DNA from: Candidatus Heimdallarchaeota archaeon | GTDB taxonomy: Archaea > Asgardarchaeota > Heimdallarchaeia > Heimdallarchaeales > Kariarchaeaceae | Length of the DNA: 64,000 nt | Assembly (NCBI GenBank): GCA_015523565.1 | Contig: WAKA01000193.1 | Coordinates: forward strand, 1,153 to 65,152 | Direction of reading: 5' to 3' | Part shown: one piece after another, positions 31,731 to 57,635 of the stretch | How the letters are laid out: the number at the start of each line of letters is the position of its first letter | Position numbering within the stretch: the stretch's first letter is position 1 | The notes under the pieces: model-generated | What the model saw: the letters and a program-made list of their open reading frames with translations, nothing else | Told to the model about the DNA's origin: nothing | The model's database searches: none | Position numbers and translations under genes: made by a program

Positions 31731-33077
31731 ATGATTGCATCCATGAGTCTTCAAGAGCAGATTGATTTTTTGGAAAAGAATTTTGACATTCCTGAAGACA
31801 GAGCAGAGGGATTGAAGTTTTATTTCTCCAACCTTATGGAAACACAGGACTTTTTGAGGATGATTTCTGCAATTGAAGAGCTGTTAACTGTGCAAAAGAG
31901 TTGGTTGCCGACCATTGTCAAACTAAAAATAATGGAGGAAAGTATAATCCATTGCAGTGAGGAGATCTATCTTTTTGAATTGATAGGGACAATGAAGGAA
32001 TATATCAACAGGATTTTTGAAACAGAAATGATTTCTGAGGCACTTGCTGTTCAGATTGTCTCGACATTCAAACAGATTGCCGAAATTTTTGCAAGGCAAG
32101 GCATATACCAAACAGCAATTGACCTGTATTCTGAAGCAATTACAATTGGAAAGTCGTTCAAGATACCGAATGAAAATCAGGCAATCCTCATATATGACCT
32201 TTTAAGGACTTATGAATCATTGGAAAGGATGAAAGATGCATTTGAACTGGCATTTTTAGGGTACAAGACCGTTGAGCATTCGCCAGTGATCATTTGGAGA
32301 CATTTGTTTGAAAGAACATTGGAGGTATTCAGTTCACATTTGATACAAACCTATTTGAGGAGTGCAGAGGGAATGGCATGGGAGGGGGATCTGGAAACTT
32401 CAAAAAACCAGACCATCAACGCTCTCAGGGTTGTTGCAGTGCTATTGCGGATTAAGGAGGGCACCACACACCAGATCAGGACTGCATTGGATCAAATAAG
32501 GACAGTCATGGTCAGGCAACGCCTTGTTGGACAGGAAGAGGTGGAGATTTATGACATATTGGGGCAATTGATGGTCAAGGAATTCAAGAGGACAAAAATC
32601 AAAACCATTGCAGATTCACTGATCAAGTACTGTGATTTGGCATTCATTCCATCAATCAGCGTATTGCTGGTCATTTACAAGAGCACACCAATTTATTCAA
32701 TTACTTTGGGCAATGATATGCAAAAGGCACAGAATAGGTCGATTTTCAAGGAAGAGGGGCAAGTGCTTTTTTCCGCCTTGTTGTCTGCTGTTTCGTCGTC
32801 AATGGAGGAGACCTTAGGAGGGCAAAACAAAGTGAAGCATATAGAATATGGCTCTCAGACCATCGTTGTCGAGTCAAGGGATGAGGTTGACATATTGTTG
32901 CTTGTGGATCGTGAAACCACCGAATTGCGGGAGTCAATGATACAGTTTTTGGAAAATGTACTTTCAAAAGGGTTTGTCGAAATGTTTTCCGACGGCATAC
33001 ATAGCAAAAAAGAGTATAGGCAATTCTTGGATCCAATTATCAGGGAGGCATTCAATCGGTATATCCAAATGAGGTAG
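31731..33077 (+). CDS. hypothetical protein: helical (TPR-like) N-region plus C-terminal Roadblock/longin-like domain; paralogue of 56292-57635
   Basis: 448 aa. Blocks shared with the paralogue: IYQTAIDLY, LKYCDL, LSAL.SAVSSSM.ETL, GSQT and DRET.ELR. TATA-like GGTTTAATAGAG lies about 27 nt upstream (leaderless pattern). Confidence 0.6.
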   Translation: MIASMSLQEQIDFLEKNFDIPEDRAEGLKFYFSNLMETQDFLRMISAIEELLTVQKSWLPTIVKLKIMEESIIHCSEEIYLFELIGTMKEYINRIFETEMISEALAVQIVSTFKQIAEIFARQGIYQTAIDLYSEAITIGKSFKIPNENQAILIYDLLRTYESLERMKDAFELAFLGYKTVEHSPVIIWRHLFERTLEVFSSHLIQTYLRSAEGMAWEGDLETSKNQTINALRVVAVLLRIKEGTTHQIRTALDQIRTVMVRQRLVGQEEVEIYDILGQLMVKEFKRTKIKTIADSLIKYCDLAFIPSISVLLVIYKSTPIYSITLGNDMQKAQNRSIFKEEGQVLFSALLSAVSSSMEETLGGQNKVKHIEYGSQTIVVESRDEVDILLLVDRETTELRESMIQFLENVLSKGFVEMFSDGIHSKKEYRQFLDPIIREAFNRYIQMR

Positions 33078-33119: not shown

Positions 33120-34655
33120 ATGGGAAAAGCGTTGGCAGTGATGGTGATCGTATTCGTCATTCTCTGTGGAGTTCCCATTGCCTCCAGTTCTGCGCAGGCA
33201 TCATTCAATGTCGAGATAACCCCTGGAATTATTGATAGGGGGATAATGCAACCAGGGGTGTCTGGAAATGGTACATTTAGATTGATCAATCATGACAGCA
33301 ATGATGCAAAGGTGGAGATCCATGTCATTAGGAGCAATCCAAATATCACAATTGATTTTCCAGAATCTGTAGATTTGAATCCTCTTGAGGAAAAAACAGT
33401 ATCCATAAAATTTGTGACACCCTCAAACCCTGGAGAATATGTCATTAAAGTTAAGTTCAGACCTGCAACCGTCAATGAGGGATCTGGAGGAGGGGCTGTC
33501 CCTGAGTTTGAAGCAAAAATATTGTTTTCAGTCCCAGGGATAAAAGTCAATATCTTTCATGTTGATTCAGGTGAACCAAACGAGGACTTGTTGATGTATC
33601 TTGAAGTTTCCTCATATAACCTGACATTTACATCTTTTGAAGGGAAGGTTGAATTTAGCCAAGGGGGAAATGTTGTTTCAACAATGGCAATCAAAAAAAA
33701 TGCGGGAAATGAAACTAACCAACTAAACTGGTCGAGATTGATCCAATTTGACCAAGAAGGTGCCTATGTTGGAATTTTGAACCTTAAGGTCAATTCAACC
33801 AAAGGAGTCATTCCAGTTGGTGAAAGAGTATTGTTTATAGTTGGAAGATCAATTCCCTTTATTTCTGTAAAAGTGAATGACAATAGCAGTGAGATTTTCT
33901 CCCTTGAAATCATCGCAGACAATAATGGCACACTGCCATACCTCCTTTCATTGGGTATTGAAATAAGGGATTCAGACACTGGAGAACTGGCTCTTTCTGA
34001 ATCAATTGCCGATGTTGTTGAAAGAAGGACATCATACATAATACCCGTTGTTGTACCGAAAGAGGGAACATATGACGCGATAATTACAGGTAGTGCAGGA
34101 GGAAAGCCAATTGCCAAGATAATCAAACTTGGTCAGGTAGCGCAGACAATTATCGGGAAAGAGCCGCCAAGTAACGCAATCCCGCCTGTTTTCTTATTGG
34201 CAGGGACAATTGCGGTCATTGGAGTTCTTGGGTTATCCCTATTATTGAAGATCAGACACAAGAAGGTATCCATTGTAAATTCCATCATTGCGTTGCATTC
34301 ATTTACAGAAAGTGGAGAGGGATTGTTTACCTATGATATGCAAAATAAGGAGATAGATGAGATGGACTTCAATAGACTCGGCAAGATTGTCTTGGCGATT
34401 AATTCTGTAGAAGTGCCTGATTCAAAATTCATTTCCGTGAAATTCGATGACCAAAGCAAGCTGTTTGTCACCTTGATCAATGGACTTGGATTTGCAGTGG
34501 AAGTGCCAGTGAAGATGACAATAGACGAGGTTGAGAGTTCGGGTATCTTGCACGGATTGAGGAAAATCGAGGAAGACAGAGGAAACAAACTGAAGAATGG
34601 GTTGGTTGATGTTTCTGCAGATTATCTGGAGTATTTGATAGGAGAGACAGAATGA
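33120..34655 (+). CDS. single-pass membrane protein: signal peptide, beta-rich ectodomain, TM, cytoplasmic Roadblock-like domain
   Basis: The signal peptide ends SSSAQA. The TM segment is IPPVFLLAGTIAVIGVLGLSLLL followed by KIRHKK. The C-terminal 135 aa, IIALHSFTESGEGLFTYDM...FNRLGKIVLAINSV...FISVKFDDQSKLFVTLINGLGFAVEV, follow a beta-beta-alpha-beta-beta pattern. Confidence 0.6.
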   Translation: MGKALAVMVIVFVILCGVPIASSSAQASFNVEITPGIIDRGIMQPGVSGNGTFRLINHDSNDAKVEIHVIRSNPNITIDFPESVDLNPLEEKTVSIKFVTPSNPGEYVIKVKFRPATVNEGSGGGAVPEFEAKILFSVPGIKVNIFHVDSGEPNEDLLMYLEVSSYNLTFTSFEGKVEFSQGGNVVSTMAIKKNAGNETNQLNWSRLIQFDQEGAYVGILNLKVNSTKGVIPVGERVLFIVGRSIPFISVKVNDNSSEIFSLEIIADNNGTLPYLLSLGIEIRDSDTGELALSESIADVVERRTSYIIPVVVPKEGTYDAIITGSAGGKPIAKIIKLGQVAQTIIGKEPPSNAIPPVFLLAGTIAVIGVLGLSLLLKIRHKKVSIVNSIIALHSFTESGEGLFTYDMQNKEIDEMDFNRLGKIVLAINSVEVPDSKFISVKFDDQSKLFVTLINGLGFAVEVPVKMTIDEVESSGILHGLRKIEEDRGNKLKNGLVDVSADYLEYLIGETE

Positions 34656-35691: not shown

Positions 35692-36243
35692 CTAAAAATT
35701 GCCCAAAAGTTGATCCAGCATGTTATTTCCCATAATGAAAAAGCTTTTCTTCACATTGTAGCCCGTTTTTGCAGATGTAAAGGCATATGGGACACTCATG
35801 CCCAACCAGTCTGACAATTGCTTGGAATACTCTTTCACAAGTTCTTCAGTGACAACTTGCTCGTCAACAAGGTCTATCTTGTTTCCTATGATCATAAGGG
35901 GGATTTTCTGGTGGTTAAGGGATTGGTCTAGTTTTTGTAGCCAATTGAAGAGGTTTTGGTAGGTTTCGTATCGAGTCACATCAAAAACAAGGATTGCACC
36001 TTTGGCACCCTTATAATAATTCGCGGTAACATTTGAGAATTTTGTCTGACCTGCAATGTCCCATATCTGAAGAATGATTTCATAGTCTTCACTTATCTCT
36101 ATGGGCACCCGTGCAAAATCAGCCCCAATTGTCATGTCTTGGTTGGGATCGAACTTGTCTTCCGTGATCCGTCGTTTAAGAGAGGTTTTACCAACGGCCC
36201 CGTCGCCAAGCAATACCAATTTTGCGATGAACTTTTTCTTCAA
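35692..36243 (-). CDS. Ras-superfamily small GTPase, Rab/Ras-like
   Basis: G1 GDGAVGKT, switch I TIGADF, G3 WDIAGQ, G4 GNKIDL and G5 TSAKTG. TTG start. No C-terminal Cys for prenylation. Confidence 0.85.
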   Translation of the reverse strand: MKKKFIAKLVLLGDGAVGKTSLKRRITEDKFDPNQDMTIGADFARVPIEISEDYEIILQIWDIAGQTKFSNVTANYYKGAKGAILVFDVTRYETYQNLFNWLQKLDQSLNHQKIPLMIIGNKIDLVDEQVVTEELVKEYSKQLSDWLGMSVPYAFTSAKTGYNVKKSFFIMGNNMLDQLLGNF

Positions 36244-36474
36244 GTTATATTCATTTCAAGAATTATTCTATTTAACTTAACTGATTTCATTTTGCAAGTT
36301 TTCAAAATTTTGTTGACCAACAGGATTGAACAAAAAACAACTGGAATTCAGAAGGGTTGTTAAAAGGAATTTGAGACTTTCAAGAAAAACACACTTTCCT
36401 TAACAGAAATATCTTTGGGATATAAGGAGACTAAAATATATCAATGGTTTTTTTCTTCATAATCTTTGGATTTT

Positions 36475-37764
36475 TCAGATATTGAAATCCCTGGATGCAA
36501 CAGTAAAGCTTGTATCTGTGCTTCCAGATGCACTCAATGGACCGACAGAGAGTTTCAATGATCCCTTTATGCCTGCTGTGACATCGACATGTATTGACTT
36601 TTCACCCTTGATTGCATTCAAGAAATCAATGGCTATTTTTATCCAAGCATTAAGGTCAATATTGGATGAAGCAACAGTCCACCATAATACTCTGAAGGAC
36701 TGCTTTGAAGACAAGCTTGTAGAAACGGTAAGGAACAATTTCCTCATTGTATAATATGTCCCATCATAGGTATAGCCTTCTGTTCTGGCACCAACACCCA
36801 AAGAATAGTCAAAACCAAAGGTGTATCCAAATAGTTTGATGTTGACACTGGAGTCCAATGATGTAGAGGGTTGAATGATTATTTCATTGGTGTCTCCGAT
36901 TCTAAAGTAAATGTCTGCCAAAGTAATTGATTGGTCAAACAGGTCAATTGGTGAGATGCCAGGGCATTCCAATGACACTGATGCCTCGACACCCACAGAA
37001 ACATGGTTGTAGTTCTTTCCGTTTAATGTTGCAGTTCCTTCGTAATCTTTTGAAATGCCCACGTCAAATGCCAAAGTGCAAATACCGATTGAGTACATGA
37101 CAAGAAGGGCAATAAATTGGATGATTGCATCTATCGCCTTTTCAAGCAGATATTGAAAATCAGGGACATAACCTGAAGATCCAGGATTGGTAATCATCAT
37201 GGGATCCTTTGGATGGGCAGATCTGCTTAAAATCTCACCTAAAAAGTTGGAGAAGACAAATTGAAGGTAACTCAATACATTATTTGCCAAATATCCAGAC
37301 TGGATTTGTCCGAGGAAATATGCTAGGCTGATGATTTCAGCAACAAGTGCATCTACCACACCATCGAATGAGGATATCAATTTTGAACCAAGTATGGATT
37401 TCGTGACATAATTGTCTGAGTAGCATGCAATCATGTAAACATATTCTGCGGAAGAAACAGCGGCAGTTGAAATTTCTGCCCAAGAAACATTGCCACCAAT
37501 TGAAATTCCTGTGGGAGAGCCATGTCCAATCACAAACAAATGAGATACCTTGCCAATGTTTTCAATATTGGTAAAGAATACAATTGAGGTTGATGGCATG
37601 ATTCTTGCCAAATCCATGGCAACCTGTGATGAGAGGTAATCGTTTTGGTCGTAAAGAATGCCGATAATTGGTTCTGTTTGATTGGAATTGACATAAAACA
37701 ACCCAAATGACGAAACTGAAATTATAACAAGCATGATTATTGCAATAGATTTGTGGTGTTTCAT
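36475..37764 (-). CDS. hypothetical signal-anchored protein with possible clan CD (caspase/legumain-like) His-Cys dyad and beta-rich C-terminal half
   Basis: Trimmed to MKHHKSIAIIMLVIISVSSFGLF. HLFVIGHGSP and, about 35 aa later, YMIACYSD resemble the HG...AC dyad. There is one further internal hydrophobic helix. Confidence 0.45.
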   Translation of the reverse strand: MKHHKSIAIIMLVIISVSSFGLFYVNSNQTEPIIGILYDQNDYLSSQVAMDLARIMPSTSIVFFTNIENIGKVSHLFVIGHGSPTGISIGGNVSWAEISTAAVSSAEYVYMIACYSDNYVTKSILGSKLISSFDGVVDALVAEIISLAYFLGQIQSGYLANNVLSYLQFVFSNFLGEILSRSAHPKDPMMITNPGSSGYVPDFQYLLEKAIDAIIQFIALLVMYSIGICTLAFDVGISKDYEGTATLNGKNYNHVSVGVEASVSLECPGISPIDLFDQSITLADIYFRIGDTNEIIIQPSTSLDSSVNIKLFGYTFGFDYSLGVGARTEGYTYDGTYYTMRKLFLTVSTSLSSKQSFRVLWWTVASSNIDLNAWIKIAIDFLNAIKGEKSIHVDVTAGIKGSLKLSVGPLSASGSTDTSFTVASRDFNI

Positions 37765-37872
37765 AGCAATTGAAATGGAGAAACTATTGTTTTTATTGCA
37801 ATCTAGAAACATGCAATTAGGAAATTTTTGGGAAAATCATTTCTACAATATGTTTGAGCATAAAGAATAATG

Positions 37873-56291: not shown

Positions 56292-57635
56292 TCAATTTGC
56301 CATGTCCACAATAAAGTACTTTTGAAAATGATCAATCAGGAAAGGCTTGAAAAATGATTTATACTCTTCCTGTGAGGGAAGCCTTCCCTTGAATTTTTCA
56401 AAAAAACCGTTGGATATCACGTCAGCCATGAACATTTGCATTTCTGTCCTTAATTCGTTGGTTTCCCGATCCGCAATGAGCAATAGAGACAATCCGTTTT
56501 CATTCTCTATCAGAACAGTCTGGGATCCATGCTGGATTTGCTTCATTTCCTCCGATGTTTTGAGGGTTTCTTTCATTGAAGATGAGACAGCGGATACAAG
56601 TGCAGAGAGCATCATTTGGCCTGATTGGGAAAATATGGTTGTAGAAATCCCCTCTTGGATTTTTTTGCTGGACTGGGAGAATATCAAAGTCCCATCCAAT
56701 ATCACTAAGATAACATCAACTGTAGGACGGAAGGTCAAGTCGCAATATTTCAGAAAGGTGTTGGCACAGTCAAGTATCTGGGCTTTTGATAGCTTGTTTG
56801 TTTTCAACAGTTCTAAAACCTCAACAATTTCCATGTCCTCACGGGTGATGTTTTGGTTTCTGGAGAACAATGAGATGATCTTGTCCAGAATGTGATGCAT
56901 TTCAGGAGTTATTCTTTTCTTGGACTGAATGATAATGGACATTGCCCTTATTGCATTGACAATGAAGTTTTTTGATGCCATATAGTTGGATTGCCAACTT
57001 AAGGCTTCGGCTCCGTTCAAATATGCATGAGCCAGCCTATACCCTGAAAATTCCAGAATTCTTTCGTAGGCGATTTCCCATGACATGTTGGCATTGTTCT
57101 TTGCGATTGAGCGACCAATAACGGAGAGTTCGAAAACCTCAGAAGTTTCCTCCAAAATCTCAAACAATTCCACTGCATCATATATTCCCCATAATTGAAG
57201 GGCGGGATCAATCTGGAATGTCTTGCCAATTGAGATCATGCTTTTGTAAAGGTCTATTGCAGTTTGATAGATTTTTTTCTCGGCAAACAGTTTTGCCATG
57301 AAAATTAGGATATGATAAAGCTTGGAATAAAGAGCCAAGGGCAAGTGGGTTTCTGAAAGCAGTTGATTGATGTAATCCTTTACCACTGCCAATATCTGAA
57401 AAAGAAATGCATCATCCTTGCAATTCTTGATGGCAAATTCAATAAGATTGAGTTTTAGGTCCAAATCCAACCAATCAAAACTTGTGGTGCAGATTTCGGT
57501 AGTGAAATCAAGAAGTGATGCACCCGATCCATCAGAAATTATTTGATTCAACGTATTGACAAGCTCAGTTCTTTTGGCATCAGGATCAGAATTGTGTGCA
57601 TCAATGTCCGAAATAATCTTAAAACCAACCTCCAT
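56292..57635 (-). CDS. hypothetical protein: helical N-region plus C-terminal Roadblock/longin-like domain; paralogue of 31731-33077
   Basis: 447 aa, collinear with 31731-33077 and sharing the same conserved blocks. Confidence 0.6.
   Translation of the reverse strand: MEVGFKIISDIDAHNSDPDAKRTELVNTLNQIISDGSGASLLDFTTEICTTSFDWLDLDLKLNLIEFAIKNCKDDAFLFQILAVVKDYINQLLSETHLPLALYSKLYHILIFMAKLFAEKKIYQTAIDLYKSMISIGKTFQIDPALQLWGIYDAVELFEILEETSEVFELSVIGRSIAKNNANMSWEIAYERILEFSGYRLAHAYLNGAEALSWQSNYMASKNFIVNAIRAMSIIIQSKKRITPEMHHILDKIISLFSRNQNITREDMEIVEVLELLKTNKLSKAQILDCANTFLKYCDLTFRPTVDVILVILDGTLIFSQSSKKIQEGISTTIFSQSGQMMLSALVSAVSSSMKETLKTSEEMKQIQHGSQTVLIENENGLSLLLIADRETNELRTEMQMFMADVISNGFFEKFKGRLPSQEEYKSFFKPFLIDHFQKYFIVDMAN

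Follow-up and report, generated by a model that had tools for sequence, protein, structure and literature searches.

A Rab-like GTPase without a lipid anchor in a recurrent gene neighborhood with longin-fold proteins in a Heimdallarchaeota genome

How does a Rab-like GTPase that carries no lipid anchor reach a membrane, and which proteins control its nucleotide state? Asgard archaea possess dozens of Rab-like GTPases and of longin and Roadblock proteins, and to our knowledge nobody can say which regulator is paired with which GTPase or by what route the anchorless GTPases come to the membrane. The question is raised here by a small GTPase encoded on contig C193 (WAKA01000193.1) of a Candidatus Heimdallarchaeota metagenome-assembled genome (GCA_015523565.1; 3.57 Mb, 90% complete, 38.6% GC), within a window of 64,000 nucleotides, which is the whole stretch of DNA that was analyzed. 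The GTPase is a fresh member of a well-described kind of Asgard protein (PMC4915359, PMC10933270), and the new, moderately interesting point is not the GTPase itself but its context: in reshuffled loci of several lineages, its gene keeps company with genes for a soluble protein (p448), a membrane protein (p511), both with a longin-type domain predicted from structural models, and a surface protein (p305). We consider it rather probable that, taken as a whole, this cassette is a functional accessory module in which the GTPase is the switch subunit and the longin-fold proteins are its partners.

An Asgard Rab-like GTPase

Two features of the window concern the GTPase gene directly:

35692..36243, minus strand: Rab-like small GTPase, 183-aa open reading frame (ORF) with a TTG start, Pfam Ras
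36264..36274, minus strand: TATA-like promoter element AAGTTAAATAG (11-mer), predicted from its sequence and its conservation in the related locus L001

An earlier reading of this DNA from its letters only (the sequence-only reading) had quoted five G motifs, and all of them are present, in order, in this ORF: GDGAVGKT (G1), TIGADF, WDIAGQ (G3), GNKIDL (G4), and TSAKTG (G5). Switch I holds Thr38 within MTIGADF, and G3 holds the catalytic Gln66. The Pfam Ras profile (PF00071) is matched over positions 1 to 160 of 162 with 149.4 bits (E = 8.9e-44); since its curated cut-off is 21.6 bits, the assignment to the Ras superfamily lies far above chance level. The Roc, Arf, and Gtr1/RagA profiles match more weakly, and NCBIfam returns only the generic small_GTP domain.

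The best PDB sequence match of the protein is the Thorarchaeota Rab (Thor-Rab, 7ezb; 130 bits), and the next 59 distinct PDB sequences are all Rab, Ypt, or Sec4, with Rab1, Rab8, Sec4, and Ypt7 foremost. Direct comparisons used 19 exact-verified references (HRAS, RAP1A, RALA, RAB1A, RAB2A, RAB5A, RAB6A, RAB7A, RAB8A, RAB11A, YPT1, YPT7, RAN, RHOA, RAC1, CDC42, ARF1, SAR1A, and Myxococcus xanthus MglA), RHEB being left out of the set. By BLASTP, Thor-Rab scored 132 bits (42% identity) and the nine Rab/Ypt references scored 97 to 121 bits (34 to 40% identity, a range that covers Rab1, Rab2, Rab7, Rab8, and Ypt7). Ran followed with 94 bits, RalA with 82, Rap1A with 78, HRas with 60, the Rho family with 48 to 58, Sar1 with 39, Arf1 with 35, and MglA with 31, so that every verified Rab/Ypt reference outscores every non-Rab reference, be it Ran, Ras, Rho, Arf, or MglA. 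The Rab-family (RabF) motifs tell the same story. Against the consensus IGVDF, KLQIW, RFRSIT, YYRGA, and LVYDIT (Pereira-Leal & Seabra 2000, as used in PMC4915359), the GTPase has all of RabF1 to RabF5 in the form IGADF, ILQIW, KFSNVT, YYKGA, and LVFDVT, identical at 18 of 27 positions. Rab5A, Rab6A, Rab7A, and Ypt7 score the same 18, whereas Ran and Rap1A reach 10, HRas, RalA, and Arf1 7, MglA 5, and the Rho family 2 to 4. The eukaryote-like, Rab-like character proposed from the sequence is thus borne out by both similarity and motif scores.

The phylogeny qualifies this affinity. A maximum-likelihood tree (77 sequences, 183 columns, LG+C20+F+G4; supports given as ultrafast bootstrap/SH-aLRT) covered the 19 reference sequences and no Rup sequence, and its deep nodes are weak, as in PMC4915359. 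The GTPase and its orthologs form a 100/99 clade nested in an Asgard-only clade of 32 rows (95/92), which in turn makes an unresolved fork with a clade of eukaryotic Rab, Ran, Ras, and Rho proteins plus Thor-Rab (89/87). The GTPase therefore lies neither inside the eukaryotic Rab radiation nor in a Rab subfamily of the last eukaryotic common ancestor. A place among MglA-type GTPases is not seen either: MglA falls outside, and Arf and Sar lie further out. Because it belongs to an Asgard-only clade and is not nested among the eukaryotic Rabs, the GTPase is Rab-like and not a Rab. Its named homologs are all Asgard (Heimdallarchaeota, Hodarchaeales, Kariarchaeaceae, and Gerdarchaeota), and several of them carry the NCBI annotation "Rab family GTPase". 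A 256-aa paralog in the same genome (C207:24006-24776) groups with Myxococcus MglA (100/96); this Heimdall genome holds a bacterial-type MglA-like GTPase besides its Rab-like set.

The chain ends ...NNMLDQLLGNF at residue 183, directly after helix α5, with no hypervariable tail and no cysteine near the C terminus. The prenylatable cysteines of Rabs (CC, CXC, CCXX, or CAAX) are absent, just as the sequence-only reading had it. With this protein as query, 27 Ras-superfamily paralogs are detected in the genome (31 Pfam Ras matches). None of the 27 has a cysteine among its last six residues, nor do any of 12 aligned relatives have a C-terminal one; the lack of a lipidation motif therefore marks the entire repertoire and does not single out this gene. 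It has already been published as an Asgard-wide feature (PMC10933270). More generally, archaeal Rab-like proteins are known to keep the RabF motifs, to form a basal polytomy, and to lack both a C-terminal extension and a prenylatable cysteine (PMC4915359; PMC10933270). The protein under study has the marks of this kind: Asgard origin, greater similarity to eukaryotic Rabs than to the other Ras families, a single G domain of about 180 aa, the catalytic Gln, and no lipid anchor, like Thor-Rab (7EZB/7EZD/7EZE, PMC10933270) and the Lokiarchaeal set (PMC4915359). On its own, it is ordinary for an Asgard genome. It differs in belonging to a Heimdall subfamily marked by DIAGQ in G3 and an "LSxWLG" segment before G5, and in the residue at the intrinsic Arg-finger position of MglA and Thor-Rab (Arg37), which is Met37 here. 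With Met at this position, a GTPase-activating protein (GAP) is to be expected, and fast GTP hydrolysis probably needs one.

MglA proteins have a G3 that lacks the conserved Asp (for example TVPGQ), an intrinsic Arg finger in switch I, and a genomic coupling to MglB (Robl_LC7). Identity with MglA is ruled out by the Asp of the DIAGQ motif, Met37, the 31-bit score, and the distance in the tree. Rup proteins represent the prokaryotic side of the family that holds all eukaryotic Ras-like GTPases, and those of Group 1 lack the catalytic G3 Gln and have, as gene neighbors, a coiled-coil protein, a membrane protein with an OmpA domain, and an output gene of the c-di-GMP or histidine-kinase type (PMC4316618); here Gln66 is present, and the neighboring genes encode no OmpA, GGDEF/EAL, or histidine-kinase domains.

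The start and the promoter also agree with the earlier reading. The TTG at 36243 is the sole usable start, because the reading frame is closed by a TGA 15 nt upstream and initiation at the next TTG codons would cost the protein its strand β1. Orthologs begin at the same residue (MKKKF, MRNKF, MKNKF), with GTG, TTG, or ATG codons. Non-ATG starts (GTG or TTG) occur in eight of the nine subfamily genes examined (the window, L001, L004, L005, L009, L010, L012, and L015), and may reflect deliberately low translation of a switch protein. The element TTAAATAG occupies minus-strand positions 36274-36267 and so has its 3' end 24 nt upstream of the start codon, and the 11-mer AAGTTAAATAG that contains it is unchanged in the 90%-identical relative L001, in which the flanking intergenic DNA has diverged. 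Archaeal TATA boxes lie about 26 nt upstream of the transcription start. Because of this spacing and the conservation amid diverged DNA, we read TTAAATAG/AAGTTAAATAG as a predicted TATA box of the gene's own, from which a leaderless or near-leaderless mRNA would be made. An Rfam scan of the 64-kb window gave no match.

A conserved cassette with longin-fold partners

Three plus-strand genes converge on the minus-strand GTPase gene in the window:

31731..33077, plus strand: p448, soluble protein with a 14-helix TPR-like solenoid (residues 1 to 304) and a predicted longin-type domain (305 to 448)
33120..34655, plus strand: p511, signal peptide (1 to 28), beta-rich ectodomain of about 320 aa, a single transmembrane helix (351 to 379), and cytoplasmic tail of about 125 aa
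34703..35620, plus strand: p305, secreted or N-terminally anchored Thr/Ser-rich beta protein of no Pfam family

Pfam and NCBIfam find no significant domain in these neighbors, with a weak TPR_12 match in p448 only. Their association with the GTPase is nevertheless conserved. In the distant Heimdall genome of L004 (GCA_026702845.1), whose GTPase is 56% identical, the order is p305, p511, GTPase, p448 on one strand with gaps of 15 to 76 nt, and the window's products match at E = 4e-95 (50% identity) for p305, 8e-43 (24%) for p511, and 6e-40 (25%) for p448. Screening of every fetched locus with jackhmmer gave the following arrangements (> and < denote the strand):

Window and L001: p448> p511> p305> <GTPase
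L004: p305> p511> GTPase> p448>
L007 = L012, L013, L017: <p448 <GTPase, then p305> p511>
L008 = L005: <GTPase, 4.2 kb of metabolic genes, p448> <p511 <p305
L014: p305> p511> p448> GTPase>
L009: <GTPase <p511, then p305>
L010: <GTPase, then p511> p305>
L011: <p511 <p305 <GTPase (GTPase truncated)
L015, L016 and G034: GTPase> p448-like>, without p305 and p511

About ten genomes have the cassette genes together, and their order or orientation takes at least seven forms. Through these rearrangements, the GTPase and p448 genes adjoin or overlap in five lineages, p305 and p511 are always neighbors, and every p511 match stands beside p305; the cassette is thus best described as two pairs, GTPase with p448 and p305 with p511. 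p448 is the tightest conserved partner of the GTPase, whereas p305 is the best-conserved cassette member in sequence (36 to 80% identity). The distribution over 83 genomes of the class points the same way: members of the GTPase subfamily (E ≤ 1e-52) and of the p448 family (E ≤ 1e-8) are found in the identical six genomes (G000, G046, G043, G033, G034, and G035), and p305 is found in seven, always within 5 kb of a GTPase match (one truncated). As the genomes are related and few, this agreement is not a statistical proof. A control speaks against adjacency as the background state, because only 4 of the 41 proteins of the genome with a p448-type C-terminal domain are encoded within 3 kb of any GTPase gene. 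A p305-based locus search of genome contigs found one locus, on the same contig as L007. In open-access full text, keyword searches found no description of this cassette.

Three observations on individual loci belong here. The GTPase gene beside p305 and p511 in L011 (L011:10107-10433, genome G050) ends after switch II as a 108-aa ORF, and is either a pseudogene or an assembly error. A sister subclade (L015:8001-12714 and G034:C396:23911-25816) has the GTPase and TPR-longin pair without p305 and p511; in L015, the pair is followed by a gene for an 870-aa secreted protein, which suggests that the extracellular components of the cassette are exchangeable. The 445-aa membrane protein p445, encoded upstream of the GTPase (36475-37812, minus strand), was ruled out as a partner, being absent from every orthologous locus.

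This linkage bears on the plainest alternative, in which the GTPase is an ordinary stand-alone paralog and unrelated neighbors travel along with it, as a mobile or recently shared island without a functional tie. Several facts fit such a view: the genome has 27 paralogs, the GTPases of strain MK-D1 do not as a rule share operons with longin or Roadblock genes (Tran et al. 2024, PMC10933270), and the window's GTPase gene lies on the opposite strand with its own predicted promoter. Two genomes of the window's own genus, one being 93% complete, also lack the cassette, and a third (G046) has only fragments of it at contig ends; being so patchy in its own genus, the cassette is accessory, and a mobile island would look much the same. 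Yet the partners have diverged to 24 to 50% identity between lineages and have been reshuffled in order and strand at least seven times while staying together. The GTPase and p448 genes are translationally coupled in several lineages and have identical phyletic sets, and the partners bear, as far as the models can tell, the very fold that regulates small GTPases elsewhere. A neighborhood without function is thus unlikely in our view.

The evidence for that fold comes from structure predictions, the topology of p511 and p305 in the membrane being read from hydropathy. In p305, hydropathy marks an N-terminal hydrophobic segment only; the p511 ectodomain has weak Filamin/Ig-like matches. The AlphaFold2 model of the p511 transmembrane segment plus tail reaches a predicted local distance difference test (pLDDT) score of 83 and a predicted TM-score (pTM) of 0.76, with the order β-β-(β)-α-β-β-β-α-α (strands E31-36 and E41-46, helix H57-69, strands E78-81, E86-93, and E96-103, helices H116-132 and H140-148). 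Its best 50 PDB fold matches in Foldseek all belong to the longin/Roadblock superfamily (E = 3.5e-4 to 5e-3, probability 0.92 to 1.00, TM-scores 0.35 to 0.57). They comprise AP sigma, COPI zeta, Ego/LAMTOR subunits, the Streptomyces Roadblock protein 3kye, and MK-D1 Roadblock2, as well as SRX bound to SR-beta (1nrj), MON1A-CCZ1-RAB7A, a TRAPPII subunit, VAMP7, Ykt6, and MglC. Because all of the best 50 agree, the fold class of the modeled tail is secure. Longin domains span about 120 to 140 aa in the order β-β-α-β-β-β-α-α. The choice of longin over Roadblock rests on topology, which is solid for p511 as modeled.

The p448 domain is less firmly placed. The AlphaFold2 model, built from a six-sequence alignment (pLDDT 81, pTM 0.69), gives the C-terminal domain the longin topology β-β-α-β-β-β-α-α (E309-316, E319-325, H341-361, E370-373, E376-383, E386-392, H397-412, and H426-441). 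A word-indexed search found 3 homologs of p448, and an exhaustive profile search found 9 full-length clusters below 1e-10; the C-terminal 130 aa, in turn, are shared by about 160 proteins, some of which are stand-alone forms of 100 to 145 aa. A 28-sequence profile of this domain matches Trs23/TRAPPC4 (3cue_A) over β1-β2 and, at E = 0.29, a second TRAPP subunit in the PDB, while sub-threshold Pfam matches of the domain type are to the Fuz/Mon1/HPS1 longin, Sybindin, and Robl_LC7. These hints are marginal and all point the same way, and we provisionally regard the modeled p448 C terminus as a longin domain.

The sequence-only reading had supposed that any membrane association would come through membrane-tethered Roadblock-like proteins of this window. 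The neighbors are conserved and the p511 tail is predicted to have the longin/Roadblock fold, but by topology it is a longin and not a classical Roadblock domain. Pfam Robl_LC7 (PF03259) has no match in p448 or p511 even at E ≤ 10, a distant stand-alone relative reaches 16.8 bits against a cut-off of 23, and neither partner shows the α-β-β-α-β-β-β order and profile match of a Roadblock/LC7 domain; kinship to Roadblock is supported at the superfamily level only. Since the Roadblock, longin, SRX, and Sybindin matches are all sub-threshold (SRX matching the p511 tail faintly, at E = 0.16), the partner domains cannot be named from sequence alone.

The p448-type domain is a large unannotated family in this lineage: the 41 ORFs of the genome (G000) that carry it yielded sampled members that all fall below the Pfam threshold. 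A second p448-family copy lies in the window itself (56292-57635, minus strand; 447 aa, 35% identical) with the same TPR and longin layout but away from any GTPase gene, and it is most closely related to a protein of the same-genus genome G046 (33%). In a representative library, the domain also stands at the C terminus of MFS transporters of about 525 aa (P0286, P0289, and P0290), a fusion of transporter and GTPase-platform domain reminiscent of the eukaryotic SLC38A9-Ragulator logic.

Rival modules and a proposed membrane platform

Longin and Roadblock domains dimerize and form platforms that bind small GTPases. Some of these platforms are guanine nucleotide exchange factors (GEFs), as in TRAPP, Mon1-Ccz1, and Ragulator, and others are GAPs, as in MglB, FLCN-FNIP, and GATOR1. 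The cassette could accordingly be of the MglA/MglB or conservon kind, with the partners acting purely as a GAP pair in an inside-out control of polarity or of the placement of surface structures, with no outside signal and no anchoring. The p511 tail has fold matches to MglC, 3kye, and MK-D1 Roadblock2, the GTPase has no intrinsic Arg finger and so needs a GAP (PMC10933270), the cassette includes a surface protein (p305), and bacteria have four-gene membrane GTPase systems in conservon CvnA-D and Group 1 Rup (PMC4316618). Like those bacterial modules, the cassette combines a GTPase, a Roadblock-superfamily regulator, and a membrane protein. The GTPase, however, is far from MglA in score and sits in a separate, well-supported part of the tree, and it keeps both the G3 Asp missing in MglA and the Gln missing in Group 1 Rup (PMC4316618). 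The partner domains have longin topology with no Robl_LC7 match above threshold, and what their sequences hint at most closely is longins of the GEF type (Trs23, Fuz/Mon1) rather than MglB. The cassette has no output gene of the histidine-kinase or c-di-GMP type, and the platform domain is fused to a receptor. A pure GAP pair of this sort therefore strikes us as improbable.

In the receptor of the signal recognition particle (SRP), SR-alpha docks on the GTPase SR-beta through SRX, a longin-like domain. An SRP-receptor-like device, in which the GTPase and the p511 longin tail would aid the export or surface assembly of p305, could draw on the 1nrj and SRX matches and on the constant adjacency of p305 and p511, both with signal peptides, but is very hard to credit. 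The SRX hints stay below threshold and do not exceed those for many other longins, the GTPase is of the Rab-like and not of the Arf/SR-beta type (35 to 39 bits to Arf and Sar), and the GTPase-p448 pair also occurs without p305 and p511 (L015, G034).

We thus return to the module in which the GTPase is served by longin-fold partners, and to what counts against it. The interaction is deduced wholly from genome context and predicted folds. The Foldseek E-values of the p511 tail are modest, never better than 3.5e-4. In the p448 model, residues 328 to 375 have a pLDDT below 50, and this stretch includes the key helix 341-361, which holds the most conserved motif of the family, LFSALLSAVSSSMEETLG. 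The fold search with the whole p448 model returned TPR proteins only, such as LGN/Pins and kinesin light chain (KLC; E of about 1e-3), which bears out the solenoid, and is uninformative on the C-terminal domain, whose sequence match to Trs23 is only marginal (E = 0.0012). Between the p448 C-terminal domain and the p511 tail, hhalign gives a probability of 16.5%, that is, no demonstrable homology. The genomic side has weak points as well. In the window, the GTPase gene is convergent with the other three and not cotranscribed with them; in L005 and L008, it lies 4.2 kb from the cassette, with the metabolic genes between; and two f6 genomes have the GTPase, p511, and p305 without an adjacent p448. 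The f6 GTPases fall outside the module clade in the free tree, a single clade not being rejected (approximately unbiased test, p = 0.29), and the genomes that carry the cassette are few, related, and not independent.

With these points weighed, the general role of longin and Roadblock domains, the conserved linkage, and the topology of the proteins lead us to propose a platform. On these grounds, we infer that tethering and regulation of the GTPase fall to the longin proteins. The GTPase would be a functional Rab-like GTP/GDP switch without a lipid anchor. At the cytoplasmic face of the cell membrane, p511 with its membrane-anchored longin tail and p448 with its longin domain would build a platform, probably as a longin-longin pair of the two proteins. 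The GTPase would be bound there and have its nucleotide state set by the platform as an exchange factor or as a GTPase activator, and recruitment to it would replace prenylation as the route to the membrane. The p511 ectodomain and secreted p305 would make up the part outside the cell, and p448 could offer an effector or scaffold surface in its TPR solenoid. In its most specific form, the cassette would be a transmembrane receptor-to-Rab-like-GTPase switch, in which a TRAPP- or Mon1-Ccz1-like p511-p448 exchange platform both recruits and activates the unlipidated GTPase; we put this forward tentatively, as possible yet on balance doubtful.

Relation to known systems and meaning for Asgard GTPases

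Eukaryotic Rabs and their longin GEFs offer the closest parallel to the proposed platform. As in TRAPP (Bet5/Trs23 with Ypt1/Rab1, PDB 3CUE) and Mon1-Ccz1 with Ypt7/Rab7, the partners here appear to have longin-type domains, with the p448 profile matching Trs23 and the p511 tail matching MON1A-CCZ1-RAB7A and TRAPPII chains. The GTPase differs from eukaryotic Rabs in having no prenylation motif, hypervariable domain, or place in a Rab subfamily. The architecture differs from TRAPP and the tri-longin GEFs as well, since TPR plus longin and receptor plus transmembrane segment plus longin are combined here, and a GEF role of these proteins is putative.

Among Asgard archaea, a conserved operon has been described that joins a Rab-like GTPase with a DENN protein and a Roadblock protein resembling LAMTOR1 (Liu et al., bioRxiv 10.1101/2020.10.19.343400, later Nature 2021). 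Both there and here, a Rab-like GTPase stands in a conserved neighborhood with Roadblock/longin-superfamily proteins proposed as regulators. However, Pfam detects no DENN or LAMTOR1-like protein among the window's neighbors, and while that operon is reported from most Asgard archaea, the present cassette is rare (p305 in 7/83 and the GTPase subfamily in 6/83 genomes of the class). The genomic linkage to longin-fold genes also sets this GTPase apart from those of MK-D1 (PMC10933270).

Genome layout seldom helps to pair a GTPase with its regulator (Tran et al. 2024, PMC10933270). The present subfamily departs from this rule: through all the reshuffling of its loci, one GTPase remains linked to two longin-fold proteins, of which one is soluble and the other anchored in the membrane. 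The trio consists of defined small proteins, which makes them testable candidates for the missing membrane anchor and regulator. If the exchange platform exists as sketched, it would be a prokaryotic forerunner of the longin-based RabGEFs and a lipid-independent way of placing a Rab on a membrane. An experimentally grounded archaeal system of Rab-like GTPase, longin regulator, and anchor would then bear on the origin of the eukaryotic membrane-identity machinery.

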